A stretch of 64,000 bases of DNA from a virus. The position numbers and the translations under genes are program-made. The notes below the pieces were generated by a model. That model had not been told where the DNA came from and ran no database searches. It was given only the letters and a program-made list of their open reading frames with translations. The stretch spans positions 1 to 64,000 of IMG/VR virus record IMGVR_UViG_3300005264_000001, one strand, 5' to 3'. Shown in pieces: positions 1,650 to 62,059 of this stretch (positions within the stretch are counted from its first letter, which is position 1; every line of letters starts with the position of its first letter).

Positions 1650-3656
1650 ATGGATAAAGAAAAAATAAAGAAAAGAGTTGAAAAATTCAAAACTAAAGCA
1701 AGTGTTCGTAAGGAAATTAATAATTTATACGATGATTTATACTCTAACACAATGATGTTAACTGATGAGGATAAAAGTGAAATTAATTATGAAATATCTT
1801 TATTAGAAAAGAGACTTATCAAGATTAAAGGTAGTAAAACTACAGGTATTTCTCAAATTAAAAAAGAAGTAGAAAACAAAGAAGTAGAATTTAATGAAGA
1901 AGCTAAACAAATATTAGATAACTTTGATAAAATTGATTATTCTATTGGATTAGAAATAAAAGAGTTGAGAGAATGTCCTTTACATGACTTCTTACGACAA
2001 AATAAATTGTATCAACACTTTTATTCATTATTTAGAATTAGATTCAGAGGAAATTATACATGGATTGCTCCATTATTCATACTGTTTATTCAATCATATT
2101 CTACAAGTGTAGGAAAGTTTAAGATGAATGATACAGATGAATACTCAAAAAGAATTAATATCTATGGTTACAAAGCATCAGGTGGAGGAAAAACAGCATT
2201 ATGTAAATTTGTTGTTAATCTATTGGAATTTTTAGATGTTCCAGCTATCTCAACTGTAAATCCAGGAACTGAAGCAAATTTGAGAGGTACTGTAATGACA
2301 TCAAATGATAATGTTACAGTTACAGCTGGAGCAATGGGTTGCTCACTTGTTGCATTTGAAGAATTAAAGACAATTCTAGCAGCTGTATCAAAAGATGATA
2401 AGTTACAAGGTTTCCTACTAGGATTATTAGAAAATACTTGGGTTGATTCAGGAACAGCCTCAGCAAACTCATTAGTAGCAAGATATAGAGAACAATGTGA
2501 AGATGAGAAAAAAGAAAAAATATCTGAACAAGTTGAACAGGTTGAACAATTAGAAACAAAGTCACTTACTACTCTTGATGATGGTATGAATTTACCTGAT
2601 GTTGAGATAAAGAAGAAACCAAAATATAATGGTAGACCAAAAGATAAAATAAAATTAGAGTTAGAAACTGACACGTATAAAGTGTCAACTTATAAAGGAG
2701 AAGTAACTGCTCAAAGTAAAATGTTTTTTAAAAACAATGCTAATTGTATTATTATGAGTCAACCAATCTTTGCTTCTTCTAGTAGATTAGAAAGAGAAAT
2801 GCAACAAAAGTTTATGTGGGAAACAGGAGCTCAATATAGAGGAATTTTCTTACATGATGTTGATAGAGTTACAAAAGAAAAAGAAACTGAGTATAAAATT
2901 CAAAGAACAACTTTCATTAATCAACTTAAAAATATATTTGATGTAGAAACAGGAAAAGATGCTGCAAAAATACTTCGTGAGAAAATGAAAACATTACTTG
3001 AAGAATTACCAGAGATGCCAATGTATATTAAATATGATGAAGTTATCGATGCTATGTCAAGTAATTTTGATAAGTGGTCTCCAACTTGGAAAACTATAAC
3101 TGACGATTTGTCAACAGCTGTTGAAAATGGTGTTGATAGTGGTGAAATTAAATATATGACATCTTACAAACAACGTACTGAATTTGTAAATATCCCAGTT
3201 ATGACTGATATCTTAGCATACATAAAAGGTGTTACATCTCCAGATTCTGAAATGTGGAAAGTAGCAACAATGTATTGTGCAAAAACTTTACAAAGTTTTA
3301 AAGATTATCTAGCAAATACAGGTGAATCAACTGTATTCTCAAAAGAGGCCCAAATGAAGAACTATTCACCAATCATACTTAAAACATTAACTAGTTTAAT
3401 AAATAAAAGTAGAAGAAACAATAAAGATATTGTGGATGAATATTATCATTACCCAAGTTTGACATTGTTTAATAAAAAAGCAGAAACGGAAATTAAATTA
3501 AAAGTTAGTGATAAATTTGATAAAGGATTATATACAAAAACTATAAATACTTTAATTGAAGCAGAGAAGATTGACGTTACGAATACAAATCCATCAAATG
3601 GAGATAAATTTAGACATAACACAAAAAAGGTAATATACAAAGGAGTATTAAAATGA
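1650..3656 (+). CDS. divergent MCM-like AAA+ ATPase, putative replicative helicase
   Basis: Walker A GYKASGGGKT. TEANLRGTV...TAGAMGCSLVAFEEL resembles MCM SAAGLTAAV...EAGALVLAD.GVCCIDE. Sensor-1-like IIMSQP. Confidence 0.65.
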   Translation: MDKEKIKKRVEKFKTKASVRKEINNLYDDLYSNTMMLTDEDKSEINYEISLLEKRLIKIKGSKTTGISQIKKEVENKEVEFNEEAKQILDNFDKIDYSIGLEIKELRECPLHDFLRQNKLYQHFYSLFRIRFRGNYTWIAPLFILFIQSYSTSVGKFKMNDTDEYSKRINIYGYKASGGGKTALCKFVVNLLEFLDVPAISTVNPGTEANLRGTVMTSNDNVTVTAGAMGCSLVAFEELKTILAAVSKDDKLQGFLLGLLENTWVDSGTASANSLVARYREQCEDEKKEKISEQVEQVEQLETKSLTTLDDGMNLPDVEIKKKPKYNGRPKDKIKLELETDTYKVSTYKGEVTAQSKMFFKNNANCIIMSQPIFASSSRLEREMQQKFMWETGAQYRGIFLHDVDRVTKEKETEYKIQRTTFINQLKNIFDVETGKDAAKILREKMKTLLEELPEMPMYIKYDEVIDAMSSNFDKWSPTWKTITDDLSTAVENGVDSGEIKYMTSYKQRTEFVNIPVMTDILAYIKGVTSPDSEMWKVATMYCAKTLQSFKDYLANTGESTVFSKEAQMKNYSPIILKTLTSLINKSRRNNKDIVDEYYHYPSLTLFNKKAETEIKLKVSDKFDKGLYTKTINTLIEAEKIDVTNTNPSNGDKFRHNTKKVIYKGVLK

Positions 3657-3839: not shown

Positions 3840-4571
3840 ATGAAATTACAAGTTGTTACAAAAGAAGAAAAACCTAGATTAGATAATAACGATGAATTAA
3901 TATGTCATAAGTGTGCTAATTGGCCTGATATGGCTGAGGACCATAATTTAGATAAAAAAGATGGAAGAATGTTTAGAGATAAAATGTTTCATAATATATT
4001 GGAAATGAAAGGCTCTTATGAAGAGGATTACTTATCATCACAAGACTTTTTTAGAACTATAGAGATACCAGAACACAGAAAAATTAAATTAAGTGGTGAA
4101 CGTGGGTGTGTATTATGTAATATTGATTTAGTTGAACCTGTATTTCACTATGCACTAATTAAATCATTATGTGATAATAAAACGGCTCAATATTATTTAT
4201 TTAGTAAAGGTGTATTTGTAAAATCATGGTATATAGAAGAACACTTAAAACACATAAAGGTTGTTGAGAATGAGGAAATTATGAAAGTTAAAACACCAAT
4301 TCAAATTGTAAATACAAGAATAGCTGATATTGAATACAGATTGAGAGAGTTAAAAGATACAGGAGATTCATTTAGTATTGACAAAGCAGAAACTTCCTTA
4401 ACTAAATATATTGCTATAAAAGCAACATTAGAAGCTGATATGCCAAAAGATACAAACAAAGGAACATCATATAGTAAAATGTTTGAGAAGATACAAGCCA
4501 AAAGATTACAAATCGAAGAATCAAAATCGAATATTGAAGAATCGAATATTGAAGAATCGAAAGATTTATAA
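3840..4571 (+). CDS. hypothetical protein with two CxxC pairs and a C-terminal coiled coil
   Basis: CHKC and CVLC; in the operon. Confidence 0.7.
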   Translation: MKLQVVTKEEKPRLDNNDELICHKCANWPDMAEDHNLDKKDGRMFRDKMFHNILEMKGSYEEDYLSSQDFFRTIEIPEHRKIKLSGERGCVLCNIDLVEPVFHYALIKSLCDNKTAQYYLFSKGVFVKSWYIEEHLKHIKVVENEEIMKVKTPIQIVNTRIADIEYRLRELKDTGDSFSIDKAETSLTKYIAIKATLEADMPKDTNKGTSYSKMFEKIQAKRLQIEESKSNIEESNIEESKDL

Positions 4572-5779: not shown

Positions 5780-5961
5780 AAGATAAAGCAATAGAAAAAG
5801 CAATAACAAATTCATATGGTGTAAAAACTAAGGGATTTTATTATGCAGACGTAAAGAAAGCAGTTAATAAACTAAGAGACTTATTTGATATAGATGGTGG
5901 TGGTTCTGAAGGATATACAGCAAAAAAAATTGATGAGATATTTGGAGACTTTAAAAAATGA
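5773..5961 (+). CDS. hypothetical protein
   Basis: Coupled ORF. Confidence 0.55.
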   Translation: MLKDKAIEKAITNSYGVKTKGFYYADVKKAVNKLRDLFDIDGGGSEGYTAKKIDEIFGDFKK

Positions 5962-7664
5962 AAGTATTAACAGCTGAAAAAATTAGAATTGAAATAGAAG
6001 GAGAGGTTTTCTTTTGTACATCGAATTTGAGTGTATTAGAAGTATATTGTTTCATGAAAACTAGAATTGAAGACGTGACATATTCAGACGGAATGTGGAA
6101 AGTACTTACAAATGAAGACAATATAAAGACGTTACAAGAACTTTTATCTTTTAGTATAGAATATATGAAATGGTCAGAAAAGTTTCTAGATTCACTTAAA
6201 AACAAGGATAAAAAAGAAGTAAGTGCTCGTGTGTTGTATCTAAGAAAGAAGTATCAAATGATTAGTAAGAGATTTCCCTTTTTATATGATTTTCAAAAGA
6301 AAGCAGTATTGAAAACAGCTTATAATAAACATGGTGGTCTGTTACTCGGAATGTCAATGGGTACAGGAAAAACAATTACAAGTATTGCTGCTGCTCTTTG
6401 TTTATCTGAAAATATCTTTATTGTGTCACCTGCTCCGTTAATGGAACAATGGCAAGCAGAATTATCAAAATGGTTTGATAAAGATAGTGTTATCTTTAAA
6501 GGTACAAAAGGTAAAAGAGAAAAATTGTATAAAGAGAACGAGAAATCTATAAAAATTATATCATATGATACATTTAAGAATGATAAAGATAATCTTGATT
6601 TACGTAAACAATTTAGACATAGTATATTAATTTGTGATGAAGCAACGAAACTAAAAAATAAGAAATCACAAAGATATTTAGCAATAAGTAAAAATAAGAA
6701 TTTCTTTAATTGGAAGATATTTTTGAGTGGGACACCTGTAACAAAAGCATTACGTGACATTCATACATTAATACAATTAATTAATAGGGGATTAGCTGGG
6801 TCTATAAAAGATTTTGAAATTTACGAAATGATTACAAGTGGTTGGGGATATAATCAAAAGACATTTCCAAAATTAGTAGGATATAAAGATTTAGATGTTT
6901 ATGTTAAAAGAATTAAACCTGTATATGAACGTAAGACATTGGAAGATATTGGAAAACAAATGCCTAAGAAAACTATAATAAGAGTTGATATTGAGCAAGA
7001 TAAACCACATCATAAATTAGCTGATTTGATATTAGAGGAACACACAGCATTTACAGGTTTCTCTTTATTATGTATGTTAGATAGTGGAATTACAAATATT
7101 GTAAATTCAGAATCAGAGAGTGTTCAATTAATAGAAGATGAACTACCAACTAAATATACAGAAAATAAGTTAGCTGTCTTAAAAGAACTAGTTGAAGAGA
7201 TAGACGATAAGACTTTAATATTTACACGATTTATTCAAACAACTAAAATGTTGAAAAAAGAATTACAAAAAGAATTTAAAAATAAGAAAATTGTAATTGT
7301 AGATGCATCAACACCTAATAAAGAAATGATTAAAAATCAATTCAATACAGGAGATATTGATATTGTAATAGCTACTGAAACATGGACTGAGGGTGTTAGT
7401 CTTGGTGAAGTGGATTATCTTATCAATTATGATGTCACACCATCTGTAGATAAATATTTACAGAAAAATGATAGAATCTATCGTTTAAACTCAACTAGAC
7501 CTAAGTTTATATATAATCTTGTTGGAAATGTTGTAGAACAACACATTATGGATATATTAGAGAAGAAACTTATCCTTATATCTGCTGTGACTGATGGGCA
7601 GGCAGGAATTATGTCTGATTCAGATATTAAAGAGGAAGTAATGAAAAAACTAGGAAAAAGATAG
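5958..7664 (+). CDS. SNF2-family (SF2) helicase/translocase
   Basis: LYDFQ, MGTGKT, ICDEAT, LSGTP, TEGVSL, QKNDRIYR. Confidence 0.92.
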   Translation: MKVLTAEKIRIEIEGEVFFCTSNLSVLEVYCFMKTRIEDVTYSDGMWKVLTNEDNIKTLQELLSFSIEYMKWSEKFLDSLKNKDKKEVSARVLYLRKKYQMISKRFPFLYDFQKKAVLKTAYNKHGGLLLGMSMGTGKTITSIAAALCLSENIFIVSPAPLMEQWQAELSKWFDKDSVIFKGTKGKREKLYKENEKSIKIISYDTFKNDKDNLDLRKQFRHSILICDEATKLKNKKSQRYLAISKNKNFFNWKIFLSGTPVTKALRDIHTLIQLINRGLAGSIKDFEIYEMITSGWGYNQKTFPKLVGYKDLDVYVKRIKPVYERKTLEDIGKQMPKKTIIRVDIEQDKPHHKLADLILEEHTAFTGFSLLCMLDSGITNIVNSESESVQLIEDELPTKYTENKLAVLKELVEEIDDKTLIFTRFIQTTKMLKKELQKEFKNKKIVIVDASTPNKEMIKNQFNTGDIDIVIATETWTEGVSLGEVDYLINYDVTPSVDKYLQKNDRIYRLNSTRPKFIYNLVGNVVEQHIMDILEKKLILISAVTDGQAGIMSDSDIKEEVMKKLGKR

Positions 7665-7694
7665 TTTTATAAAGACAAAACTATTTCTATTACT

Positions 7695-8639
7695 ATGAAT
7701 AATAAATCAGTAGTATGGTGGAGTGGTGGTAAAGATTCAACAGCAGTAATTTTAAAATTACTTGAACTTGGTTATAGAGATTTTAATGTCGTATTTATAG
7801 ATACTGGAATTGAATTCGATGAAATGTATACATACATAGAGAGAAGTAAGAAATATTTCTTAAAGTTTGGTATAAAAGTAAAAACATATAAGTCAAAAAA
7901 ATATACTTGGGAAAATATGTTTTATTCTATAAAACAAAAAGGAAAGAACAAAGGGGATAATTACGGTTTTCCTTATACTTGTGGTGCCTGGTGTAATGCT
8001 AGGTTGAAAGTAGACCCGATGAATGAAGCAAAAAAAGATTTTAAAGACTATATAGAAATAATAGGATATGCGATAGATGAAAAATCAAAAATAAGACAAT
8101 TAAAGATAAAAAATAAACTTAATGGGATAGATAAATTCAAAACAGTTAAATATGTTAAAGATAAAAAAACAAAAGAGATAAGAGAAGTTACATTAGAACA
8201 TGACATTTCAAATGAAAGATATTTATTAGCAGAACATAATATGAAAGAATCTGATTGTTTAGAATTATGTAAAAAACATAATCTATATAATCCATTATAT
8301 GATTTGTTTGGAAGAACTGGATGTTGGTGTTGCCCTAAACAACCATTAGCAAGTTTAAGAATCATTTATTTAAAAATGCCTGAAAAATGGAATCAACTAC
8401 GAGTGTGGCAAAAAAATAGTAAGAATTCATTTAGACCTAAAGAATCAATTTTTGATTTACAAGAACGATTTGAATCTGAGATTATCGAATCTAAGATTAA
8501 GCTTTTAAAAAAAACAGTATTAAAACATTATTTAATTTTTAAAACAACAATTTTTCATTACTCAACAATAACAATAATTCTATCATTACTCAACAATCAA
8601 CAACTTTATAAACACGTAATCATTCTTATATTATACTGA
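7695..8639 (+). CDS. PAPS-reductase-family (DndC-like) enzyme; true C-terminus may be in the -1 frame ending at 8542
   Basis: PP-loop SGGKDS, FIDTG, WCNARLK, RTGCWCCP. Confidence 0.85.
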   Translation: MNNKSVVWWSGGKDSTAVILKLLELGYRDFNVVFIDTGIEFDEMYTYIERSKKYFLKFGIKVKTYKSKKYTWENMFYSIKQKGKNKGDNYGFPYTCGAWCNARLKVDPMNEAKKDFKDYIEIIGYAIDEKSKIRQLKIKNKLNGIDKFKTVKYVKDKKTKEIREVTLEHDISNERYLLAEHNMKESDCLELCKKHNLYNPLYDLFGRTGCWCCPKQPLASLRIIYLKMPEKWNQLRVWQKNSKNSFRPKESIFDLQERFESEIIESKIKLLKKTVLKHYLIFKTTIFHYSTITIILSLLNNQQLYKHVIILILY

Positions 8640-8725
8640 CCACAGAGTCAGACTTAGTAAACTTACAAAACTTACATTTAATTATTAGAGATTATTACCT
8701 CACAATTTTTATATTTATTCTAACG
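8635..8725 (+). ncRNA. candidate small RNA
   Basis: TATA at 8605-8612 with the same TAATCATTCTTATAT spacer as the 4565 promoter. 5' hairpin CTGAC-cacaga-GTCAG; no ORF before the next promoter at 8731. Confidence 0.4.
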
Positions 8726-8793
8726 AAAACAAAAGACTTATAAAGAGTTAATCATTATTATATATTATGAGTTGAAAAACTCGAGAAAATAAA

Positions 8794-10104
8794 ATGGAAA
8801 ACACATTAAAATATTTGGATTCAACAATGGTTGAAAAATTAGAAGTTAAAGGTTACTCTAAAGAGAGTTTGATTGAATTAGAAGCAAGAGAAATTAAATT
8901 ATACGAAAAAAGATTTAAAGGTACTGCTTACACTGAGGAAAAATACGTAGGAAATAGAATGAAGTCTTTAGCTAAGACTAGATTAGCTGATAAAAGAGAT
9001 TTTGTAACAGGTATATTATCACTTGAATCAAAACACATTATTGTAAAGATTAATGGTGAAATGACTTTAAAAGGTTTAGGATTCTCAAAAGACTTTCCAA
9101 AAGATAACTTTAAAGCAAAAACAGGAGATAAAATTAGATTCTTAGCTTATCCTGATAACTTAGATAAATACCCTACAATTTGGTTTAATGAATTACCAGA
9201 AGTAATTGGAAGTGTAGACGTCTCAAAGATTGATGATATTTTATTAAAAGGTGGATTTAAAGATTTAGATGTTGTAATTGTTGGAAGTACTAAACTTGAA
9301 AATAGCTTAGGTGATTGGAGAAAATTCTCTGAGAAAAATGCAGGTAAAACAAGAATTGATAAAAACACAAAGGTAGAATATAAAGTAGAAGCTGGTAGAA
9401 TGCCTTGGTCTTGTGGTGACATACCATTTGGTTCAAAGATTCCTGAAGGAAATGATTATCGATGTAACGCATTGGCTTTAATTAAGAGTGATGATAATAC
9501 AATAATGAAGTCTTTAGTATTAAAAGGTGATTGGTTAGAAAATGCAGACTTATCAACAGGAAGTGTTATTAAATATAAATCAACATTAGCAACTGTTGCA
9601 GCTCTTAAAAACGTTTGGATTACAAATGAACCTGTATTTGATAAAGAAAAACAAGTAATTACAAAAGATGAAATCTTAGAACAAGGTAAAGAATTTGTAA
9701 GAACTATTGAAGAATTAAACAAAGAAGATTACAAAGGTTTAGCTATTGTAACAGGAAACATTGCAAACTATAGTGTTAAAGGTAGTGCTGTTGAAGTTTC
9801 ATTCTCTGATGATTCAGAAGGAGATGGATTAAATGATATTGTTGATAAAAACTATATTGTAGATTGTCCATTTGTTGACGGTTCAATGGATGTTACATTT
9901 ATTGGATTAATTTCAAGAGATGTTAACACAAATTTATACTCATTTGGTAATAGTGTATTTACAACATTCTTTGATGAAATATTTGCTGTTCCAAAAGCTG
10001 AGGAAGATTTAGCTGACGAAACATTTGAAAGTGAAGATTTTGCTAGTGATGATGAAGACATCGAAAGTGATGAAGAAATTGATATTGAGGACGATTTATT
10101 ATAA
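8794..10104 (+). CDS. putative ssDNA-binding protein (RPA/SSB-like)
   Basis: Beta-rich sequence with a very acidic C-terminal tail, next to a recombination ATPase. Inferred from composition and context. Confidence 0.5.
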   Translation: MENTLKYLDSTMVEKLEVKGYSKESLIELEAREIKLYEKRFKGTAYTEEKYVGNRMKSLAKTRLADKRDFVTGILSLESKHIIVKINGEMTLKGLGFSKDFPKDNFKAKTGDKIRFLAYPDNLDKYPTIWFNELPEVIGSVDVSKIDDILLKGGFKDLDVVIVGSTKLENSLGDWRKFSEKNAGKTRIDKNTKVEYKVEAGRMPWSCGDIPFGSKIPEGNDYRCNALALIKSDDNTIMKSLVLKGDWLENADLSTGSVIKYKSTLATVAALKNVWITNEPVFDKEKQVITKDEILEQGKEFVRTIEELNKEDYKGLAIVTGNIANYSVKGSAVEVSFSDDSEGDGLNDIVDKNYIVDCPFVDGSMDVTFIGLISRDVNTNLYSFGNSVFTTFFDEIFAVPKAEEDLADETFESEDFASDDEDIESDEEIDIEDDLL

Positions 10105-10105
10105 A

Positions 10106-10573
10106 ATGGCAGGAGCTAATATAGTTGATGTACAAAGAATCGTTACAGAAAAAATTAGATTTACTGGAGGGGATTATATCCTCAACACTAACGATAAAAC
10201 ATTATTTAAGATGTTTCATAAGATTAAAGATTACGGAGACGAATTAAAGAAGAGTGTAATTGAAGCATTTTTACAAGATAAGTTTAAAAATGTTAATAAA
10301 GAATACAGACACGAAATATTTGTAAGAGATATGGAAGTATTCACAAAAACAATCTTGAAATACTTCGATGAGTTTGTGGAAAATATGACTGAAGCTGATA
10401 CATTGGAAACAATCGACCAATTAAAAGCATATGATATTGAACTTGAATCAGATGACGAAGATGAAGAGGAAGATGAAGAGGAATCTCGTGAAATGACTTA
10501 TGAAGAAAAACAAGCAGCTTTAAGAAATAACAATACAAATGTAAATGATGTAAACAATGAGGCTAGTGCGTGA
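10106..10573 (+). CDS. acidic hypothetical protein
   Basis: Start MAGANI at a TAAAATGG junction; poly-D/E tract. Confidence 0.65.
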   Translation: MAGANIVDVQRIVTEKIRFTGGDYILNTNDKTLFKMFHKIKDYGDELKKSVIEAFLQDKFKNVNKEYRHEIFVRDMEVFTKTILKYFDEFVENMTEADTLETIDQLKAYDIELESDDEDEEEDEEESREMTYEEKQAALRNNNTNVNDVNNEASA

Positions 10574-11418
10574 TGGCAACACCTGTTAAAAAAGAAGTAA
10601 CTGAAACTCTTGAACAAAGAAGAGCAAAATGGTATACTAAAGTTAAAGAACTTGAAAGTAAAAAATTTTGTATTGTTGTTGGAACTTCTGATAAAAATGG
10701 AATGTCTGATGGAACAGGTAAAACTGCTTTAACTGTAAGTTATGGTATTGATTACTTAAAAAAGAATCCTACCAAAAACATCTTCATAATTGATATTGAT
10801 TGTAGTGTTGATTATATTGCTAAGTACTATACTGAATATACAGATAGAATTTTAGTATTTCAACCTAACTTTGTTAAAGAAGATAATACAGCTGATTTTA
10901 CAAGATGTATTAAAGAGATTAATGCTGTTTGTGGTGATATTGCTAAAAATTATGAAGAGTTAAATATTGGAATGATTATCTTTGATGGATTAACACCTTT
11001 TAAAAAGATGTGTGAGATGCAGATGAGAATGGATAAATTTATTACAACTGAAGGAAAAGTTAATACTTTGTTTTGGCAGACTAGAAACAATCATTTTTTC
11101 AAGTCATTGAATACATTAAGAAGAGTACCAATTCATAAGTTTTTCATTGCTCAAGATGATTTCTTAGCATTTAATCAAACTATTGACATGGGTGGGACTG
11201 TTGTAAAAGTAGGAGCACTTCAAAAATCAGTAAGTGAAATGTGTTTACAAAGAATCCTTTGTTCAAAGAAAGAAAACTCAAATGGTGATTATGTTTTAAC
11301 AGCTAAGATTGATAAAGCAAAAGATGCACCCGAGAAACTCAACAAAGAGTACAAATTTATGATTGTAAATGATAAAGGAGTACGATTTAATACTGATAAA
11401 GTGTTTGAAGGATTATAA
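10570..11418 (+). CDS. RecA-superfamily AAA_24/Sak4-like ATPase
   Basis: DGTGKT, IIDID, IIFDGLT. Confidence 0.75.
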   Translation: MMATPVKKEVTETLEQRRAKWYTKVKELESKKFCIVVGTSDKNGMSDGTGKTALTVSYGIDYLKKNPTKNIFIIDIDCSVDYIAKYYTEYTDRILVFQPNFVKEDNTADFTRCIKEINAVCGDIAKNYEELNIGMIIFDGLTPFKKMCEMQMRMDKFITTEGKVNTLFWQTRNNHFFKSLNTLRRVPIHKFFIAQDDFLAFNQTIDMGGTVVKVGALQKSVSEMCLQRILCSKKENSNGDYVLTAKIDKAKDAPEKLNKEYKFMIVNDKGVRFNTDKVFEGL

Positions 11419-12130: not shown

Positions 12131-12844
12131 ATGATTAAAATAGAAAATACAAAATTTGAAAAGTTTCTGAAATATATTTCAGTAGAAAAAGTTAATGAAC
12201 AATTAGTAATTGAATTTACTGAAAATGGTATTGAAGCAAACGTTTTCTCAATAGACCACACGTTAGCAGTAATTGCTACACTTAAAAAAGAAGACTTTAT
12301 TGAATATGAAAATATTAATAAAAAAGTTGGAATTAAAAATGTAGAAAGTTTAATTAATATTATGAAAGTTCTTTCAAATGATGTTGAATTAAACGTAATA
12401 GAAGAAAACAATACAGAATTCTTATCAGTAGTTAGTGATAAAACAAAAGCAACTGTATCAGTAGCAGATATTGATAGTATTGAAACTAAATTAGACCCTA
12501 AATTTAAAACAATGATTCTAGAAAAAGACACAAATTTTGTATCTTTAGATAGAAGCACAATAAATAAGTTATCTTCTATTATTGGGAGTGTTGAAAAATT
12601 AACTAAGTTAACTATTAAAGATAATGTATTAAATGTATTAATGGGTAGTTCAAGTATAGTTACAATTAATAATACTATTGAAAACTTTGAACATGTAGAT
12701 GAAAAAGGAACTTATGGAGTTAAAATTAGTAATGTTTTAAAAACTATTAAAGATGAAGATGTAAGTTTATGTGTAATTGAAGGAAATTTAATTCTTAGAG
12801 TAGAAAAGTACAACTCATTAGTTTTACTAGCATCGGAGGAATAA
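12131..12844 (+). CDS. pcn: PCNA-type DNA sliding clamp
   Basis: 237 aa; IEFTENGIEANVFSIDHTLAV and DFIEYE..KKVGI match the PCNA N-terminus; adjacent to RFC. Confidence 0.8.
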   Translation: MIKIENTKFEKFLKYISVEKVNEQLVIEFTENGIEANVFSIDHTLAVIATLKKEDFIEYENINKKVGIKNVESLINIMKVLSNDVELNVIEENNTEFLSVVSDKTKATVSVADIDSIETKLDPKFKTMILEKDTNFVSLDRSTINKLSSIIGSVEKLTKLTIKDNVLNVLMGSSSIVTINNTIENFEHVDEKGTYGVKISNVLKTIKDEDVSLCVIEGNLILRVEKYNSLVLLASEE

Positions 12845-12847
12845 ATA

Positions 12848-13747
12848 ATGGAGTTATGGACTGAAAAATACAGACCAAAGAAATTTGAAGACGTAATTGG
12901 AATTCCAAAATCTATTGTGAATTCCATTAAAGAAGGTGGAATTCCACATCTTTTATTATCCTCAAATAGTCCTGGTACAGGAAAATCTTCGAGTATGAGA
13001 ATTATCATTGAACAAAATAAAGCTGAGTGTTTACAATTAAATGCAAGTACTGAAAATGGTGTAGATGTTGTAAGAAATGAAATTAAAAACTTCGCTATGT
13101 CAAAATCTATTAACGGGACACCACGTATTATTGCACTAGAAGAAGCACAACAACTTACAAATCAAGCACAAAGAGCTTTATTAGATGTTATGGAAAGATA
13201 TGAGAAAAATTGTAGATTTATTTTAACTTGTAATAATTATAAGAAGTTAGATGATGCATTAATTTCAAGATGTCAGCATCACAAATACGAGAAACCAAAG
13301 AAAGAAGATATTTGGGATTTAGTACAAAAGATTTGTGAAAAAGAATCTTTATCAGTGAGTGAGAAATTAGTTCAATTACTTGTTGATAGATATTATCCGG
13401 ATATGAGAACTATTGTAAATAAATTACAAGAATTCAAAGAACTAAATATCAAAATTACAGAAGATTTAATTTTAAGTGATGTTAGAGTCTCAGAAAAACT
13501 ATTTGAATTATTACAGAATAAAACACCATTCACAAAAATAAGACAATGGGTATTAAATGAGAATATCAATTATGAATCAGCACTTGTGGAAATGTATATT
13601 TATTTATTAGATAATAAAGACAAGTTTAAAGGTAAAGTTTCTAAGATTTTAGAAAAGATTGTAATTTGTAATAGGTATATGAAGTCTTGTATATCACAAG
13701 AAATTGAATTTGAACATATGTTGAAATCAATTTTAACAATAATTTAA
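12848..13747 (+). CDS. rfcS: replication factor C small subunit (clamp loader)
   Basis: LWTEKYRPK, PGTGKS, LNAS, EEA, SRC motif. Confidence 0.95.
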   Translation: MELWTEKYRPKKFEDVIGIPKSIVNSIKEGGIPHLLLSSNSPGTGKSSSMRIIIEQNKAECLQLNASTENGVDVVRNEIKNFAMSKSINGTPRIIALEEAQQLTNQAQRALLDVMERYEKNCRFILTCNNYKKLDDALISRCQHHKYEKPKKEDIWDLVQKICEKESLSVSEKLVQLLVDRYYPDMRTIVNKLQEFKELNIKITEDLILSDVRVSEKLFELLQNKTPFTKIRQWVLNENINYESALVEMYIYLLDNKDKFKGKVSKILEKIVICNRYMKSCISQEIEFEHMLKSILTII

Positions 13748-13753
13748 ATTAAA

Positions 13754-14215
13754 ATGGTATTAATGAGTATGCAAGCAATATTTGAAAGAAGATACAAAGA
13801 TGTAGATGTAAATCTACTAGTACCTTTGAATCGTTGGAGTAACTTCTGTATACAAAATGAGAACGTTACAGTCGATATCAATAGACATTTCTTTGTTGGT
13901 AATAAGAATATACTACTGGGTCAATTATACTATTGGAATCGTTCCCCTAAGTTTATTAAATATCACAAAACCGAGAAATTTAATAAAGATAGATTTGATT
14001 TTGTATCACAACTCTTACAAAGAAAATACAAATACGGCACAAATGAGATTGAGTCAATGAAAAGACTTATTGAGATTATGATTAAGCGTTCTGATGAAAT
14101 GGAAAAATTAGCAGGTTATTTTGGTCTAGAATTAAAAGACAGAAAGAAATTAGGTTTAAAAGTGTTGAAACCAAAGATTGAAAAATCAACTAAAAAGATT
14201 AGAACACTATTTTAA
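13754..14215 (+). CDS. putative clamp-loader A subunit (T4 gp62/RFC-L analogue)
   Basis: Position after RFC, size, PKFIKY segment and a C-terminal IRTLF PIP-like motif. Confidence 0.55.
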   Translation: MVLMSMQAIFERRYKDVDVNLLVPLNRWSNFCIQNENVTVDINRHFFVGNKNILLGQLYYWNRSPKFIKYHKTEKFNKDRFDFVSQLLQRKYKYGTNEIESMKRLIEIMIKRSDEMEKLAGYFGLELKDRKKLGLKVLKPKIEKSTKKIRTLF

Positions 14216-14218
14216 AAA

Positions 14219-15430
14219 ATGAAAGAAGAAATTTTAAAAACAAGAAAATTAAAAGTATTTGAGATGTTTGCTGGTTATGGTGGGGCATCTTTTGGTTTAC
14301 AAAATGCAGGAATAGAGCACGAATCAGTAGGTTTTAGTGAGATAGAACCTTGTAGTATTAAATGTTATGCACAAAACCATATTGGAGTAAAAAATTCCGG
14401 TGATTGTTATAAAATAAAAACTGAAGATTTACCTGATTTTGACATATTAACAGGGGGATTTCCATGTCAGTCCTTTTCAATAGCTGGAAAAAGAGAAGGA
14501 TTTAAAGCAAAGAAAAAAGGACAACTATTTTTTGAAATTATAAGAATAGCAAAAGATAAAAAGCCTAAATATATGTTACTTGAAAATGTACAGGGTTTAA
14601 TAAGTCACGATAATGGTAACACTTTAAGTGTAGTACTACAAGAATTAAGGGTTTTGGGTTATGGTGTAGAACATAAACTACTTTATACTAAAGATTATGG
14701 AATACCTCAAAATAGACCTAGAATTTGGTTTGCTTGTAAACTTGGTGGTTGGGAATTAGGAGAATTTAGTTGGCCTAAAAAAGAAAAAACTTGTGAAAGT
14801 ATTTGGAATATTCTTGAAAAAGAAGTAGACCATAAATATTACCTAAAAAAAGATTTGTTAGAAACACTCAATAGAATAGAAGTTGAGAAAGGTAGAACAA
14901 AAATATTACAATCAGATGGATTATTTCAATTTAGGTATGATAAGGGTTTGGTTAAAGCAGATACATTTACTTTAATGGCAAACTTTAAACCTAATGATTT
15001 GTCTAATATGTTATTTATTAGACAACCACAAAAAAGTTTTATCGGAGGTTATAGATATGACAAAGGTATAGAGATATTAAGTGATAAAAATGTATGTTCA
15101 ACATTAACAGCAGCAAAGAATCAAATAATTATTGGTGATTTTAGGTATGATGAAGGAATAAGAGTTAGAGAAGATGAGATATCACCAACATTAACTACTA
15201 ACAACAATACAATAACAAACTTTTCTATAACAACATTTAGAAGTATAACACCAAAAGAATGTTGGCGATTAATGGGATTTAAGGATGGTCAAATTAATGT
15301 TGAAGGTATGACAGATAGACAACAGTATTTCATGTCTGGTAATGGTTGGGATATTAATGTTGCAAGTTTAATTTGGAAACAAATGTTAACTAATAAATTT
15401 GAGAAAAGAGGATTATTTAAATTACTTTAA
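14219..15430 (+). CDS. C5-cytosine DNA methyltransferase
   Basis: FAGYGG, GFPCQ, ENV, QNRPR, GNGW. Confidence 0.95.
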   Translation: MKEEILKTRKLKVFEMFAGYGGASFGLQNAGIEHESVGFSEIEPCSIKCYAQNHIGVKNSGDCYKIKTEDLPDFDILTGGFPCQSFSIAGKREGFKAKKKGQLFFEIIRIAKDKKPKYMLLENVQGLISHDNGNTLSVVLQELRVLGYGVEHKLLYTKDYGIPQNRPRIWFACKLGGWELGEFSWPKKEKTCESIWNILEKEVDHKYYLKKDLLETLNRIEVEKGRTKILQSDGLFQFRYDKGLVKADTFTLMANFKPNDLSNMLFIRQPQKSFIGGYRYDKGIEILSDKNVCSTLTAAKNQIIIGDFRYDEGIRVREDEISPTLTTNNNTITNFSITTFRSITPKECWRLMGFKDGQINVEGMTDRQQYFMSGNGWDINVASLIWKQMLTNKFEKRGLFKLL

Positions 15431-15632: not shown

Positions 15633-17495
15633 ATGGGAAAATATATACAAAAATTAGTAAAAACAGAGAAAGAGTGGCAACAACTAGTTGAATTATCAAA
15701 ACAACATAAAGTGATGAGTTTTGATACTGAAAATGGAGGTGTTGATAAACTACATGCTGTAAATGTTAAACATTGTAATCCTGCTGGATTTAGTGTCTCG
15801 TTTGATGGTATTACAGGTTTTTATGTACCTATTAATCATACAGATATTAAAACAGAATTTCACAAGAGATTTAACGAGTTATTAGAAACTGTAATTGTAT
15901 TACCTATGTGGAATGCTCCATACGATGGTGGTATAGTTCAATATAGATACAACGTAGACATTGAAGACAAATATTGGTGGGATTGTATGGTTGCTCAACA
16001 TCTAATTGATGAGACAGATAAGAAAGGATTAAAATATAATTCAGAAAAATACTTTGGTTATACACAGGACCACTTTGATTTTGGTGATTGTAGTAAAGTA
16101 TCAAGTGAAGCTATTTTCAAATATGCTTGTGATGATGCTATTATGACCTTTAAACATTATGAAAGATTACAACCTCAACTAAAAAAAGAAGGGTTATCAA
16201 GACTATTTAGAGAAAGAGAAATACCTTTACAACCTGTATTGGCTCACATGAAGTGGCACGGTGTTACGTTTGATACTGAAAGAAGTATTGAGATTGAAGA
16301 AAAAGCTAAGAATAGATTAGATGAAATAATTCCTGAGATTTGTGCTGTAACTCCTGAGATTAGAATGCAAAAAACATTATTTGGTGGCCCTAGTATTCCA
16401 ATCACTGATGTGAATAAACCTAATCAATTAAAGAAACTTTTATTTGATGATTTAAACTTAACAATTACAGAAAAAACTGAAACAGGTTTACCTAAAGTTG
16501 ATAAGAGAGCATTAAAAAATATTAAAGATGAACATCCTATTATTCCATTATTAATAGAAAATTCAGTTGTTAAAAAGATTTACTCAACTTACACGTACAG
16601 TTTACGAACTAAAGTTATGAAGGATAATAAGATATTTATGAACTTAAATGATGTAGGCACAAAAACCGGACGTTTCGCGTCAAACTCGCCGAATCTACAA
16701 AATTTACCATCTAATGATGACTATCCTATTAGAGAATGTTTCATTGCTCCTAAAGGTTATAAAATGATAGCAATTGATTATTCACAACAAGAATATAGAT
16801 TTTGTGGGCATTTGTGTGATTGTAAAAACTTTAAAGAGTTGTATAAGAAAGGTAAAGATTTACATCTAACAACAGCTAATGATTGTTATAATCTAGGAAT
16901 TCCAGAGGAAGGCTTAATTAAGTCAAGTCCAAAATATAAAGAGTATGAAGAGAAGTTTCATAAACACAGAAAATTAGCTAAATCAATTAATTTTGGTATT
17001 CTATATGGTATGGGTGCAAAAAGTTTAGGTGAACTACTTGGAGTAGATGAATCAGAAGGGCAAAGAATTATTGATGCTTATTCAATAGCAAACCCTGAAA
17101 TTATTACTAAAATGAAGCACATACACAAACTTGTAGATGCACAAGGTTTTGTGAGAAATTATTATGGGAGAAAAAGAAGATTTACAAAAAGACATGGGAG
17201 ATTTTATTCAAATGGAGATAAAAGAGAAGCCTTTAATCATCAAATACAATCATCATGTGCGGACATGTTAAGAGGAGTGTTCATAGAGATTTACAAATAT
17301 GTAAAGACTACAAATGATGAAGTCATAATAAATTTTACAGTTCATGATGAACTTGTTTTTTCTGTGAAGGATAATGAAAGAAAAAACTCGCATCTTAAAA
17401 AATTAATTAACATTATGGAAACCACAGAGAAGTTTAGTATATATATGACAGCCGATTGTGGTGGTTTTTATAATAATTATGCAGATGCGAAATAG
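15633..17495 (+). CDS. polA: family A DNA polymerase with 3'-5' exonuclease
   Basis: Exo motifs FDTE, NAPYD, YACDD; TGRFAS..PNLQN; motif A DYSQQEYR, motif B RKLAKSINFGILYG, motif C VHDEL. Confidence 0.96.
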   Translation: MGKYIQKLVKTEKEWQQLVELSKQHKVMSFDTENGGVDKLHAVNVKHCNPAGFSVSFDGITGFYVPINHTDIKTEFHKRFNELLETVIVLPMWNAPYDGGIVQYRYNVDIEDKYWWDCMVAQHLIDETDKKGLKYNSEKYFGYTQDHFDFGDCSKVSSEAIFKYACDDAIMTFKHYERLQPQLKKEGLSRLFREREIPLQPVLAHMKWHGVTFDTERSIEIEEKAKNRLDEIIPEICAVTPEIRMQKTLFGGPSIPITDVNKPNQLKKLLFDDLNLTITEKTETGLPKVDKRALKNIKDEHPIIPLLIENSVVKKIYSTYTYSLRTKVMKDNKIFMNLNDVGTKTGRFASNSPNLQNLPSNDDYPIRECFIAPKGYKMIAIDYSQQEYRFCGHLCDCKNFKELYKKGKDLHLTTANDCYNLGIPEEGLIKSSPKYKEYEEKFHKHRKLAKSINFGILYGMGAKSLGELLGVDESEGQRIIDAYSIANPEIITKMKHIHKLVDAQGFVRNYYGRKRRFTKRHGRFYSNGDKREAFNHQIQSSCADMLRGVFIEIYKYVKTTNDEVIINFTVHDELVFSVKDNERKNSHLKKLINIMETTEKFSIYMTADCGGFYNNYADAK

Positions 17496-17529: not shown

Positions 17530-19173
17530 ATGATTGAGAAAAACTTAATAAAACAATTAAAAGAGAACGACGAAGATTACAATTTCTATCCTACATCAAA
17601 AAGTATGATTAAAACAATATTTAATCATATAAATAATAATTATGTAGATATTTTAGACATAGGTTGTGGTACCTGTAACTTTAAAAATTATTTTAATGAA
17701 TTATCAGAAGAAAAATATAATTATGAACAACAAAACAATATTCTAAGTGAATATCAAAGAGAAATTCCAAAGAAAAAAATAAATAATTATTTTGTAATTG
17801 AGAAATCAAAAATCTTAATAAATAAATTAGATAAAGATTCTATGATTCTAGGTACTGATTTTTATGAGACTAATTTAATAGATAAACCTGTAGGAACTAT
17901 CTTTTGTAATCCACCTTACGATGATTTTAAAAATTGGATGTATAAAATTATAGATGAAGGTAATTGCTATGATATGTATTTAATAGTTCCTCAAAGATGG
18001 AAAGAAGATACTAGAATAAATGACTTAATTACAAAAAGAAAATTTACTTATGAAGTATTAGATAGTACAGATTTTTTAAATGCTGAAAGACAAGCAAGAG
18101 CTAAAGTTGATATTCTACACATAACTAAAAAAGTTAAAAATTATAGAAATGATAGTTTAGATAGTATTGAAAAAGATTCATTTAGTGAATGGTTCAATGA
18201 AGAATTTCCTATGAGTAGAGAAGAGATAGAAACAACACCTGAAGAAACTATTAAGAATGAATTAGTTAATGGAGAAGATAAAACAGAGATTCTTGTTAAC
18301 CTGTATAATAGTGAAATTACAATATTTAATAATCATTTTAAATCTATATGTTCACTTGATTTAAGTATTTTAGAAACAATAGGAATTGATAAATCTAAAG
18401 TTATGAAAACAATACAACAAAAAACAAAAAGTTTAAAAATACTTTATTGGAAAATGGTTTTTGAACAATTAGACGAAATAACAACCAGATTAACAACTGA
18501 AACAAGAAGAGAATTGTTTGAGAAGTTTACAGAATGTCATGCAATAGACTTTAATAAAAGAAACATTTACGCTATAATTGTATGGGTTATAAAGAACTCT
18601 AATGACTATTACAATAAACAATTAATTAGTTTCTATAAAGAACTATCTGATAAAACTAATGTTACCCCGTTTAAGTCTAATCAAAAGTTATTTGAAAATG
18701 ATGAGTGGAGATGGAATAGTTTTAGTACAAAAGCAACACATTACACACTAGATTATAGAATTATTTGTAATAATAGATTAATAAACGTAAAGCAAAACTG
18801 GAACGGAGGAGGACTAGAAACAGGTTATGACTATGACGAGAAAATTTCTGATATCAAAGTAGTGTTTAAAAATATAGGATTTGAAATAAAAAATATTGAA
18901 AAACCAACGAGTTTCGGAGAGAAATGTTATGCATACGATAATGAAGGAATCCAAATGTTCGAATTTAAATGTCATAAAAATGGTAATTTACATTTAAAAC
19001 TAAATGTTGAATTTACAAAAGCAATGAATGTAGAAGTAGCAAGATTACTTGGTTGGATTAAAAATAAAGAAGATATTAAAAGAGAATTTTCAAAAGAAAT
19101 GGCAAAAGGTGCAGAGAAATACTTTAAATCAAATCAATGTATAGGTTTTTCTGATATTAAGTTGTTACAATAA
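17530..19173 (+). CDS. N6-adenine/N4-cytosine DNA methyltransferase with DUF4942-like C-terminus
   Basis: FYPT, LDIGCGT, NPPY, FLNAERQAR, KNGNLHLK. Confidence 0.85.
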   Translation: MIEKNLIKQLKENDEDYNFYPTSKSMIKTIFNHINNNYVDILDIGCGTCNFKNYFNELSEEKYNYEQQNNILSEYQREIPKKKINNYFVIEKSKILINKLDKDSMILGTDFYETNLIDKPVGTIFCNPPYDDFKNWMYKIIDEGNCYDMYLIVPQRWKEDTRINDLITKRKFTYEVLDSTDFLNAERQARAKVDILHITKKVKNYRNDSLDSIEKDSFSEWFNEEFPMSREEIETTPEETIKNELVNGEDKTEILVNLYNSEITIFNNHFKSICSLDLSILETIGIDKSKVMKTIQQKTKSLKILYWKMVFEQLDEITTRLTTETRRELFEKFTECHAIDFNKRNIYAIIVWVIKNSNDYYNKQLISFYKELSDKTNVTPFKSNQKLFENDEWRWNSFSTKATHYTLDYRIICNNRLINVKQNWNGGGLETGYDYDEKISDIKVVFKNIGFEIKNIEKPTSFGEKCYAYDNEGIQMFEFKCHKNGNLHLKLNVEFTKAMNVEVARLLGWIKNKEDIKREFSKEMAKGAEKYFKSNQCIGFSDIKLLQ

Positions 19174-20947: not shown

Positions 20948-21847
20948 ATGATTGAAAAAAACAAACTAAAGAATAGGTTAAGTAAAAGTAAACTAAAATC
21001 TTTTGCGATTTGTCCCAAAAGATATTGGTTCGATAGAATGGAACCAGCACCATTTTTAGCAAGCACAGCAACTGTCAAAGGAACTCGATTACATAGTATT
21101 TTTGATAATTTGTATAAATCATTTGGTGATATACAAGAATACAGAAGTAAAGAACAACTGTATGATGAGTTAATGAGTCAACTACGTGAAACAAAAGAAG
21201 ATACATATAAAGAGATTGCTAAAACTGATTGGAATCTTCCTAAACATACACCTGAACAAAAACAAATGTTCTTAGACTTATTACCTGAGAATGAAAAAGT
21301 TGAGTATGAAAAACAAGTTAAAATGTTTGTTGATTGGATTGAACAATTAGGATTTACTTATCCTGAAAATTGTGAAGAAAAGATTTATGATGAAGACTTT
21401 GATTTTGTTGCTTTATATGATAGATTAGAATTTGATGGAAAAGTTAGAATTGTAATGGATTACAAGACAGGTAAAGAACATGATTTAAGTGATTATACAG
21501 ATGATGAACTTCCTTGGTATGCTTTCTTTATTGAGAAGAAATATCCAGAGAAAAAGATTGATTACGTATTAATTTATTTCGTTGATTTAGGTAAAGCAAA
21601 ATTAGTAAAATACACTGAAGAAATGTCTATGAATGCCATGAGTAAATTTCAATTTTTAGAAGATGGTGTTGATGAATGTATTAGAAATAATAACTGGCCA
21701 GCTCAATTAAATAATTATTGTGGTTATTGCCCTTATAATGAGAAATGTAAAATGTATCAATGGAAATTAAAAAAGAAAGAACAAGATAAAGTAAAGAAAG
21801 AAGGTGTAAAGAGTGTCACTAAGAAAAACACTCTATTTGGAAAATGA
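20948..21847 (+). CDS. Cas4/RecB-like PD-(D/E)xK exonuclease
   Basis: LSKS...CP, GTRLH, DRL, DYKTG, C-terminal CGYCPYNEKC. Confidence 0.88.
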   Translation: MIEKNKLKNRLSKSKLKSFAICPKRYWFDRMEPAPFLASTATVKGTRLHSIFDNLYKSFGDIQEYRSKEQLYDELMSQLRETKEDTYKEIAKTDWNLPKHTPEQKQMFLDLLPENEKVEYEKQVKMFVDWIEQLGFTYPENCEEKIYDEDFDFVALYDRLEFDGKVRIVMDYKTGKEHDLSDYTDDELPWYAFFIEKKYPEKKIDYVLIYFVDLGKAKLVKYTEEMSMNAMSKFQFLEDGVDECIRNNNWPAQLNNYCGYCPYNEKCKMYQWKLKKKEQDKVKKEGVKSVTKKNTLFGK

Positions 21848-46085: not shown

Positions 46086-47447
46086 TTAAGGTCTCCAAAA
46101 GTAACCATCTACTTTCACGTTTGTAATAACAGCACTTCCTGATAAAGTGTCTTCTGGGTCGTTACCTAGTCTATAAAAACTTATTATAATTTCTTCTCCA
46201 GGAACTAATGTGTTAACGGGAATTAAAAAACTTGCTGTCCTTCTTGTATTTTGATTTCCTGCTTCAAATGTATCTATAGCGGTACTTGTAAAGTCAGGAG
46301 TGTTTGACGTCGAGTAAACAAAACCATCTTTAACATGAATTGCATCTATTCCAAACTTGACAGCACCAGCATTATCTGATGTTGGGTAACCAGTAATATT
46401 TAAGGTCATGGGGATACTTGTATCTAATCCCTCAGGAATGGTTATCGGAATAATAAAGCCATCTTCGGTATTATCTACGAATTTATTGTCATTAATATCT
46501 CCAACCATACCATTAGCATAGTTTATGTTTTGACTTCCTGGGTTTTTTGATATGTTTTGTAATGTGTTACTCACTCCTGCAAATAATGTTTTTTGGTATC
46601 TACTTTTCCCAAAATATTCTGTTGAACCATCTGCATTAATTTCAAATCTATTAGTATGCATTTTTAATTGTTCTATAGTTATATCGGTTGTGATGTCAGA
46701 TGTTATTAAAAATCTTGCCCAATATTTAGTATAATCTGTTCCATTAATATTTAAAGTAACCTTGTTCCATGGAACTGGTAGGTTTGACGGATTGAATCCA
46801 AATCTCCATTGTTCAGAAGAACTATTCAAAGCACCAAGAACGTTTCCTCGTTGTGTATAAGGATAATTTGCATCAGTAGCCATAAAATTTGCAGTTGCCC
46901 AGGTCGTGTCGTTTTCTAAATATTCACCAATAACATTTTCTGGTTCAACATCACCTGCAATGTCAATCTTAGCCTTAACACCACTAAATGTATAATCACT
47001 TCCAACAAGAACATATTTTCCAGTAGTTGTCCCATTAAATAATCCGACTGTAGAACCTGTATCGCTTGACAATTCGGTAGTTACATCTGTTGCTCCTGTT
47101 ATGGTTAATCCAGTAGTGTTTGATATGTCACAATGCCACGCACTACCAACCTTAGGAACACCTTCTGGTGTAGTGTCTTCCTTTCCAACACCATATGAAT
47201 CCCCTTCTCCAAATACTGATTCTTTTGAATTACTAGGTTTTCCAACTGAAAATTGTTCAGTACAAATAATTCCTTTATCGTCTCCTATATTAACTGCTTC
47301 TAAATAAGGAACAGCTGTTCCCTCTCCAAGATAAGTTTTCATAGCAGAGTTAGGAACTGTAACTGAGTTCCCTTCTTCACTTACTCCACGTGTAAAATCG
47401 TTATCATCTACACTTGTTTTTATTGTTAAATTTTTTTCTTTTACCAT
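46086..47447 (-). CDS. putative virion structural/decoration protein
   Basis: T/G/S-rich beta protein in the late operon. Confidence 0.6.
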   Translation of the reverse strand: MVKEKNLTIKTSVDDNDFTRGVSEEGNSVTVPNSAMKTYLGEGTAVPYLEAVNIGDDKGIICTEQFSVGKPSNSKESVFGEGDSYGVGKEDTTPEGVPKVGSAWHCDISNTTGLTITGATDVTTELSSDTGSTVGLFNGTTTGKYVLVGSDYTFSGVKAKIDIAGDVEPENVIGEYLENDTTWATANFMATDANYPYTQRGNVLGALNSSSEQWRFGFNPSNLPVPWNKVTLNINGTDYTKYWARFLITSDITTDITIEQLKMHTNRFEINADGSTEYFGKSRYQKTLFAGVSNTLQNISKNPGSQNINYANGMVGDINDNKFVDNTEDGFIIPITIPEGLDTSIPMTLNITGYPTSDNAGAVKFGIDAIHVKDGFVYSTSNTPDFTSTAIDTFEAGNQNTRRTASFLIPVNTLVPGEEIIISFYRLGNDPEDTLSGSAVITNVKVDGYFWRP

Positions 47448-61278: not shown

Positions 61279-61674
61279 TTATTTTATCTTGTTTTTTATA
61301 TCTTTAAGGTAGTCTGGTAACTCTCTTAATAAGAGAACTATTCCAACACAACACAAAAAGTTCCATATGTCAAAAATTCCTACTCTAAGGTTAAGTACAC
61401 CAAGTAAAGCAAGACTTAATAATAAATCATATGTTATCTTTAATAAATATATTTTAAATATTTTCTTTAATTTATCAGTTTTATCATTTTTAAAGTTTCT
61501 TAAATATAATTGAAACCAATATTTTTTATTAAAAATATATCTACTGCTTAGTTCTTTCCAAAATGCTTTCGTATTTAGAAAGGATATCTGTATCTCTTGT
61601 AAGCTGTTTTTTGAACGGAGCAACCATTTCTTTGATTCTCTTTTCAAAAGCTTCTTTAAATTTATCTTCACCAT
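61279..61674 (-). CDS. membrane protein
   Basis: Two TM segments; start uncertain. Confidence 0.5.
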   Translation of the reverse strand: MVKINLKKLLKRESKKWLLRSKNSLQEIQISFLNTKAFWKELSSRYIFNKKYWFQLYLRNFKNDKTDKLKKIFKIYLLKITYDLLLSLALLGVLNLRVGIFDIWNFLCCVGIVLLLRELPDYLKDIKNKIK

Positions 61675-62059
61675 TTTTTTCAATAACTTCAATATTTTTT
61701 TTAACAGTTTCAATCATTGCTTGAATCTCTGTTACTTCTTTAAAAAAGAATTCCTCAACTTGCTCATTAACACTTAAATTATACAAATCTTTCATTTCTT
61801 GTTCTTGTTTTTCTAGTTCAATTATTTGATTTTTGTATTCTTCTTTTTGTTGTTCAAATGCTTCAGAAGTATATTCTAATTCATAACCTTTAATACTATT
61901 TTGTAAACTCTCAATTTGTGCTTTTACAATTTTAGCATACTTCTTTAATTGTGTTCTACTTGTGAATTGTTTAAATCCATTTGTTAACTCAATGTTACCT
62001 TCTTTATCTACTTTTAATTCGTAGATGTCTTCATGTTTAATATCTCTTTCAGTTTTCAT
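61541..62059 (-). CDS. coiled-coil hypothetical protein
   Basis: E/K/Q-rich ORF. Confidence 0.65.
   Translation of the reverse strand: MKTERDIKHEDIYELKVDKEGNIELTNGFKQFTSRTQLKKYAKIVKAQIESLQNSIKGYELEYTSEAFEQQKEEYKNQIIELEKQEQEMKDLYNLSVNEQVEEFFFKEVTEIQAMIETVKKNIEVIEKNGEDKFKEAFEKRIKEMVAPFKKQLTRDTDILSKYESILERTKQ

Follow-up and report, generated by a model that had tools for sequence, protein, structure and literature searches.

The window analysed here, the whole 64,000-nt stretch of viral DNA, contains a gene for a PAPS-reductase-family enzyme (7695-8639, + strand) whose annotated reading frame continues past the conserved domain into what scores like non-coding DNA, and a shift of one base at a T4A8 run near its 3′ end uncovers a different, shorter tail, NSIKTLFNF-stop. 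We hold it plausible but unproven that this hidden −1 tail is a clamp tail. That it is the genuine or ancestral C-terminus, with the coding sequence ending in a TLF-class tail at TAA 8540-8542, is a tentative reading to which we give slightly less than an even chance. The functional coding sequence would then end at that TAA in the −1 frame and specify a 282-aa protein, its tail would be classed with the Lys-rich ...TLF C-termini that a 153-aa protein and a nuclease of the same virus carry, and it would probably dock the enzyme on the PCNA-type clamp that the virus itself encodes.

With a G+C content of 28.6%, the window covers the opening 64 kb of a virus record that measures 92,961 bp and has direct terminal repeats; the virus is uncultured, and the same DNA is present in marine-sediment metagenomes. 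TATA-like heptamers form a sharp peak at −28/−29 upstream of 38 of 129 start codons (e.g., at 7666, 17501, 19253, and 20919), and an SD-like 4-mer of any kind was found in just 43 of the 129 genes. The TATA peak implies archaeal-type promoters and largely leaderless mRNAs, features from which the host is judged to be probably archaeal. The enzyme gene itself has a TATA-like box at 7666-7673 (+), 29 nt upstream of ATG 7695, and is probably transcribed from a promoter of its own into a leaderless mRNA.

The gene comes after a SNF2 helicase gene (5958-7664) and is the first in a replication and modification module that also holds a family A polymerase. This module encodes a viral sliding clamp of PCNA fold (12131-12844, +; NCBIfam archaeal sliding clamp, E 1.4e-5; AF2 pLDDT 91.5; Foldseek TM 0.70-0.82 against archaeal and eukaryotic PCNA), a clamp loader resembling the RFC small subunit (12848-13747, +; NCBIfam NF001679, E 1.5e-49; PHROG 168), and, adjoining the loader, a 153-aa orphan protein of no known family that ends in KKIRTLF-stop (13754-14215, +). 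These are followed by a C5 cytosine DNA methyltransferase (14219-15430, +; Pfam PF00145, E 1.5e-72; C-terminus KRGLFKLL-stop) and a PD-(D/E)XK nuclease (20948-21847, +), which carries a 27-aa Lys-rich C-terminal extension with the ending KKNTLFGK-stop. Within the head-morphogenesis module, 55600-56649 encodes a protein with a RelA/SpoT domain (PF04607, E 1e-10).

The conserved coding part of the enzyme gene (7695-8513, +; 273 aa) matches the PAPS_reduct family of PP-loop enzymes (Pfam PF01507) with an E-value of 1.1e-13 and 52 bits, against a curated cut-off of 22.5. According to the alignment and the structural model, the domain ends near residue 259 (the F of ERF) and the last helix extends to about residue 272. 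The PP-loop SGGKDS is invariant in the alignment of relatives and the Cys motif GCWCCPKQ is also present; the AF2 model (pLDDT 92.3) has a Rossmann-like fold of the PAPS/APS-reductase type, with APS/PAPS reductases as the best Foldseek matches (E 1e-6, TM 0.45-0.55). The nearest solved sequence by profile over 7695-8513 was a 270-aa chain named 'PptA' (PDB 21fy, E 2.3e-11).

An earlier sequence-only reading of this DNA had called the enzyme DndC-like, a description that stands as a weak family likeness in the N-terminal PP-loop half and fails at full length. The enzyme shares SGGKDS and the N-terminal half with SspD (E 1e-9), BrxP (3e-8), and DndC (7e-4), which are the DNA phosphorothioation proteins with a PAPS-reductase domain, but these matches are limited to the first ~70-145 residues and are no better than the generic PF01507 match; the PADLOC DndC match (E 7e-4) covers residues 6-144 rather than the full length, and no DndC family was among the matches of an NCBIfam profile search of the enzyme. 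As to the accompanying statement that the other dnd genes are absent, our scan of four other window genes (1650-3656, 5958-7664, 10570-11418, and 17530-19173) found no Dnd/Ssp/Brx NTPase partner among them; the adjacent SNF2 helicase matched helicase models alone, including a weak match to BrxHI. An NTPase partner of the DndD/SspC/BrxC type is held to be essential for phosphorothioate (PT) synthesis (PMC12914056).

The enzyme belongs to the same family, at 25-35% identity, as the stand-alone 'PAPS reductase' genes of phiCD119, Methanobacterium virus PhiF1, and Acidianus tailed spindle virus, and the GCWCCP-type Cys motif is common to it and to such stand-alone phage and archaeal-virus genes. 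It differs, together with its relatives P0002-P0004, in a ~40-aa insert and a post-domain C-terminal tail, of which P0005 shows only the start, whereas most other stand-alone 'PAPS reductases' end a few residues past the domain. The Acidianus tailed spindle virus homologue (L165:1438-2220) has the C-terminus ...CPLCRTLI-stop; in the PhiF1 homologue the tail is absent and a C5 methyltransferase gene adjoins. The safest statement is that the gene product is an ATP-pyrophosphatase-type enzyme within a DNA replication and modification module. Its position in this module beside the SNF2 helicase suggests a nucleic-acid substrate, and the enzyme may act on DNA.

The T4A8 run occupies 8503-8514 (+), with the T run at 8503-8506 and the A run at 8507-8514, and is read from ATG 7695 as the frame-0 codons CTT (8502) TTA AAA AAA ACA. 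It contains two slippery heptamers, T_TTA_AAA (8504-8510) and A_AAA_AAA (8507-8513), both in X_XXY_YYZ phase and suited to tandem −1 slippage. In frame 0 the gene continues for 41 codons (8514-8639, +; TVLKHYLIF...ILY, TGA 8637-8639), giving 314 aa in total. The −1 frame, equivalent to A9, reads ...LLKK NSIKTLFNF-stop (tail and stop 8513-8542, +; TAA 8540-8542) and yields 282 aa with the C-terminus ...LLKKNSIKTLFNF, and the +1 frame, equivalent to A7, ends as KKQY-stop. The run, the heptamers, the −1 reading, and its TAA were all placed correctly to the base by the sequence-only reading.

The same reading had judged the frame-0 tail implausible and noted that it crosses a promoter at 8605, and our analysis bears out both points. 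The last 32 codons of the frame-0 run-on (8541-8636) look non-coding: their codon-usage log-likelihood is −7.65, against a mean of +7.9 (sd 4.7) for true coding windows of 32 codons in this genome, just 0.56% of which score as low, and a mean of −6.3 for stop-free out-of-frame windows. Asp and Glu are absent from the 41-aa run-on, a lack shared by 1.1% of equally long proteome windows. Two T5 runs, possible archaeal-type oligo-T terminators, lie at and just past the −1 stop (8536-8540 and 8551-8555, +); the density of runs of T5 or longer is 1.35 per kb in coding sense versus 3.4 per kb downstream of stops, and within this gene there are none in the first 754 nt (7695-8448) and three in the last 190 nt. 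The run-on also contains two copies of a 14-nt direct repeat, CATTACTCAACAAT (8556-8569 and 8584-8597, +), and a full copy of a recurrent TATA-type promoter element (8605-8636, +), through which frame 0 stays open to 8639. This element has the form YTTATAAA..TAATCATT..TTATAT and recurs at 4565, 8737, 12073, 19282, 20948, and 25558, the copies at 19282 and 20948 standing before genes. Relatives of the enzyme end 11-29 aa past the conserved Phe F259, a distance that is 23 aa in the −1 product, 16 aa in the +1 product, and 55 aa in frame 0.

The tail ending resembles others encoded by the same virus. TLF within five residues before a stop was found at 17 of 14,211 six-frame stops of the whole genome, and a Lys-Lys context was combined with TLF and a stop in three of these 17 cases: two are real C-termini, those of the 153-aa neighbour of the clamp loader (KKIRTLF) and of the PD-(D/E)XK nuclease (KKNTLFGK), and the third is the hidden −1 tail, in which the KK, as a caution, is supplied by the A8 run itself. 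The IKTLF of the hidden tail closely resembles the IRTLF-stop of the 153-aa protein. Across the proteome, the TLF tripeptide occurs 10 times in 28,303 residues, with two occurrences at C-terminal ends in the replication module against ~0.3 expected. The 27-aa extension of the nuclease is absent from its relatives, the nearest of which ends in PLFGGEEK, and a search of IMG/VR recovered no relative of the nuclease. These counts have to be read in the light of how the tail was picked, by a scan of the whole 64-kb window, in which the G+C content of 28.6% fills all frames with K, N, I, L, and F.

The likeness to clamp-docking peptides had been described as a close match to the QxTLFDF form of the PIP box; the −1 tail has the spacing and resembles two viral replication-module C-termini, and it lacks the Gln. 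Archaeal PCNA-client PIP peptides, such as those of the P. furiosus RFC large subunit (PDB 1ISQ) and A. fulgidus FEN-1 (1RXM), have the same C-terminal placing and share a short hydrophobic or aromatic motif after a basic linker, and the virus encodes both a PCNA-fold clamp and an RFC-like loader. KNSIKTLF spaces its hydrophobic residues (h4 and 7-8) as Qxx[LIM]xx[FY][FY] does and has no Gln at position 1; frame-0 KTVLKHYL has PIP-like spacing too, likewise without Gln. The RFC-L PIP peptide is QATLFDFL, to which the TLF(N)F of the hidden tail is similar. The viral tails KKIRTLF and KKNTLFGK differ from the canonical PIP box in being truncated, and the hidden motif differs in being reachable only via a −1 shift. 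A complex prediction for the clamp trimer with the last 45 residues of the nuclease scored 0.08 against a mark of 0.32, which counts neither for nor against binding. TLF tails of this kind would be candidate clamp ligands, as their sequences suggest.

The closest relatives of the enzyme, P0002-P0004 at 55-62% identity and P0005 at 44%, are proteins from contigs of 1-6 kb. None of these four has a TLF ending, an outcome that, taken to the letter, removes the clamp link as the sequence-only reading had framed it. What the relatives do share is a brief hydrophobic motif at the C-terminus, h-[KRS]-G-x-h-I, seen as LKGYFI-stop (P0004), ISGSLI-stop, and LRGNGI; P0002 and P0004, both 274 aa long, stop directly after the matching Ile, and P0003 runs 19 aa past LRGNGI. 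The comparison does show that the clade carries a hydrophobic C-terminal peptide past the catalytic domain and that more distant homologues lack it. When scored for this motif, frame-0 TVLKHYLI reached 27 (conditional P ~0.045) and −1 KLLKKNSI reached 30 (conditional P ~0.02) in another register, the latter once the shared prefix ESKIKLLKK was included; scoring without the prefix favoured frame 0. Both frames thus match the motif about equally, and tail-motif scoring is indecisive. The C-termini of P0003 and P0005 have the form G[IL]xPKx[IL]-stop (VGILPKII and RGLQPKHL), which resembles the KRGLFKLL-stop tail of the C5 methyltransferase (15407-15430).

Wider searches returned few further relatives. 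No match was obtained by blastn against phages for close relatives, the best relative of the enzyme in IMG/VR, searched by protein and by alignment, had 36% identity, and a metagenome scan for close relatives gave 40% identity as the best among the matches listed. Clade-specific degenerate DNA patterns were found in neither IMG/VR nor GTDB genomes. PCNA was encoded in none of the loci examined, and a PAPS homologue was not found in two loci of clamp-loader relatives (L161 and L162).

The length of the A run was examined in assembled contigs from two samples. A 25,971-bp contig of X1, the probable source run of the record, has A8, with no differences or gaps over 7600-9100 at a depth of 13.7 (Logan), and a 288-bp contig of X2, a run from another sample of the same study, covers 8310-8597 at a depth of 25 and also has A8 (Logan). 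A8 is therefore the consensus in two samples, as read from contigs, which drop minority variants. An assembly indel, one of three origins suggested for the frame switch, is accordingly unlikely; A8/A9 phase variation finds A8 alone in these contigs, which would hide a minority A9. X3, a marine metagenome run of another study, contains a ~91%-identical relative over 7887-8396 that diverges past 8396 and continues as LLLWQLDSKV..., suggesting a mosaic 3′ end; this relative is uninformative on the tail because the divergence begins before it.

The third suggested origin, a programmed frameshift, has the in-phase heptamers in its favour, yet there is no downstream RNA structure at the slip site (MFE −1.8 kcal/mol, z −0.02 versus shuffles), and no SD-like element was seen by eye upstream of it. 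Four further genes also have sense-strand A8 runs, and their alternative frames read nothing similar, a result that counts against the −1 tail. Given the absence of RNA structure and these other A8 runs, classical stimulated frameshifting is not supported. In total, the 93-kb genome has five A8 runs in the sense strand of genes (1324, 5922, 8507, 52760, and 61695 in the window), each of them in the final third of its gene (relative position at least 0.69). The run at 61695-61702 (− strand) belongs to ORF 62059..61541, in a region between terminase-side genes and the portal/MuF gene, and its +1 (A7) reading joins this ORF with the overlapping ORF 61713..61279 in one long frame. Overall, the interpretation offered by the sequence-only reading survives in its implausible frame-0 tail and in the TLF-tail likeness, and falls short on the frameshift element, the TLF in relatives, and the DndC likeness; its further proposal, that the enzyme acts at the replication fork, is an inference.

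Recoding on A runs has well-known precedents. E. coli dnaX slips on A AAA AAG to yield its gamma and tau isoforms, and Thermus dnaX does so by transcriptional slippage on A9. The viral site shares the in-phase A_AAA_AAA and A8 homopolymer character with these and with fucA1 (A-AAA-AAT), and its −1 frame, as in dnaX gamma, meets an early stop that gives a shorter isoform. It differs from the fucA1 and dnaX cases in having no flanking stem-loop or other stimulator and, in contrast to dnaX tau, which is a functional long isoform, its frame-0 product resembles junk. Archaeal ribosomes perform −1 frameshifting on A-AAA-AAT in S. solfataricus fucA1, at about 10% in vitro (PMC1616953).

If the genome truly carries A8, the 282-aa protein can arise in two ways only. 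RNA polymerase or the ribosome could slip back one base on T4A8, an event that would be unstimulated and low-level, or the A8 allele could have arisen recently from an A9 gene by loss of one base, in which case most molecules would carry a junk hydrophobic tail. Either way, the −1 tail may be made. The −1 ending is favoured by the non-coding run-on, the end distances of the relatives, the KK...TLF recurrence, the nuclease extension, the PCNA fold, and the in-phase heptamers; against it stand the A8 consensus, the lack of RNA structure, the open frame 0, relatives without TLF, and the frame-0 motif match.

Most of these opposing points would be consistent with a gene read as encoded, with 314 aa, in which the −1 TLF tail is a by-product of AT-rich sequence (HYL becoming TLF), the hydrophobic extension is genuine, or else is made and tolerated, and any clamp-like motif is the frame-0 KTVLKHYL. 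We consider this possible and rather unlikely. It accords with an A8 fixed in two samples, with the lack of a stimulatory element past the run, with the A8 runs in four other genes, and with a frame 0 open for 41 codons, as only ~3-9% of random frames would be; TVLKHYLI fits the motif of the relatives, and P0003 likewise extends past it. Adjacent frames are moreover coupled, since moving back by one base turns frame-0 CAT TAT TTA (HYL) into ACA TTA TTT (TLF), and in our simulations each frame largely dictates the other. Starting from a −1 I[KR]TLF tail, a frame-0 peptide as relative-like as that observed arose in ~0.6% of cases. The peptide IKTLFSF occurs within an unrelated 107-aa ORF (genome 80252-80575), so such a peptide can arise by composition; QKTLFGG is internal to the family A polymerase (16368-16382) and QKTLFAG to a 453-aa late protein (46086-47447), and together the three indicate that TLF-type peptides are not restricted to C-termini. 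The forward simulation, with the genome's codon usage, speaks the other way, as h[KR]TLF with a nearby −1 stop arose in just ~0.02% of cases when frame 0 held a family-type motif. Reading the gene as encoded is also difficult to reconcile with a run-on whose codon score is typical of non-coding DNA and which contains a promoter, repeats, and T5 runs, and with the fact that the other two six-frame KK...TLF-stop cases are real C-termini.

A second alternative keeps frame 0 across the A run and ends the protein as ...KKTVLKHYLIF-stop at TAA 8540 through slippage on the T5 run at 8536-8540 or the loss of a base from it, where T6 would read ATT TTT TAA. In that case LKHYLIF would be the clamp-like motif, with LKGYFI-stop of P0004 as its homologue. 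This ending scores 22 against the P0004 tail (P 0.0005 without correction for the shared prefix), stops directly after the matching Ile as P0002 and P0004 do, and leaves outside the protein the later run-on that looks non-coding. It is nevertheless very unlikely: rates of indels and slippage in homopolymers are far lower for a T5 run than for A8, the contigs of X1 and X2 both read T5 at 8536-8540, and HYLIF is without a counterpart among the virus's other C-termini. Still less probable is an A7 ancestor of ~275 aa, ending in ...LLKKQY-stop (TAA 8519-8521) and devoid of a clamp tail, in which an inserted A created the run-on; its length would be near that of the 274-aa relatives and the +1 frame does stop after two codons, but the +1 ending does not match the tail motif of the relatives (best combined score −27) and the KK...TLF coincidence would be left unexplained. 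The least probable alternative, that A9 is the true sequence, A8 a sequencing or assembly artefact, and the PIP-like tail simply in frame, draws on homopolymers being classic sites of single-base assembly errors and runs against the A8 found in both contigs.

Returning to the −1 ending as the true C-terminus, a bolder extension of it would be that an archaeal-type tailed virus sends a PP-loop enzyme to its own PCNA via a peptide made only upon A8 slippage, with recoding setting the ratio of fork-tethered to free enzyme, which would point to a replication-coupled DNA modification without dnd, ssp, or brx partners; we regard this full scenario as decidedly improbable. Phages and archaeal viruses commonly carry a stand-alone 'PAPS reductase' gene; a clamp-docking tail, if true, would mean that the enzyme works on newly replicated DNA and not in sulfur metabolism. 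A tail dependent on A8 slippage would be a rare case of recoding in an archaeal-type system, and would imply that functional C-termini beyond a homopolymer can be hidden by gene callers. If the likeness is instead a coincidence, it would serve as a warning that adjacent frames in DNA of 28% G+C yield look-alike hydrophobic peptides.
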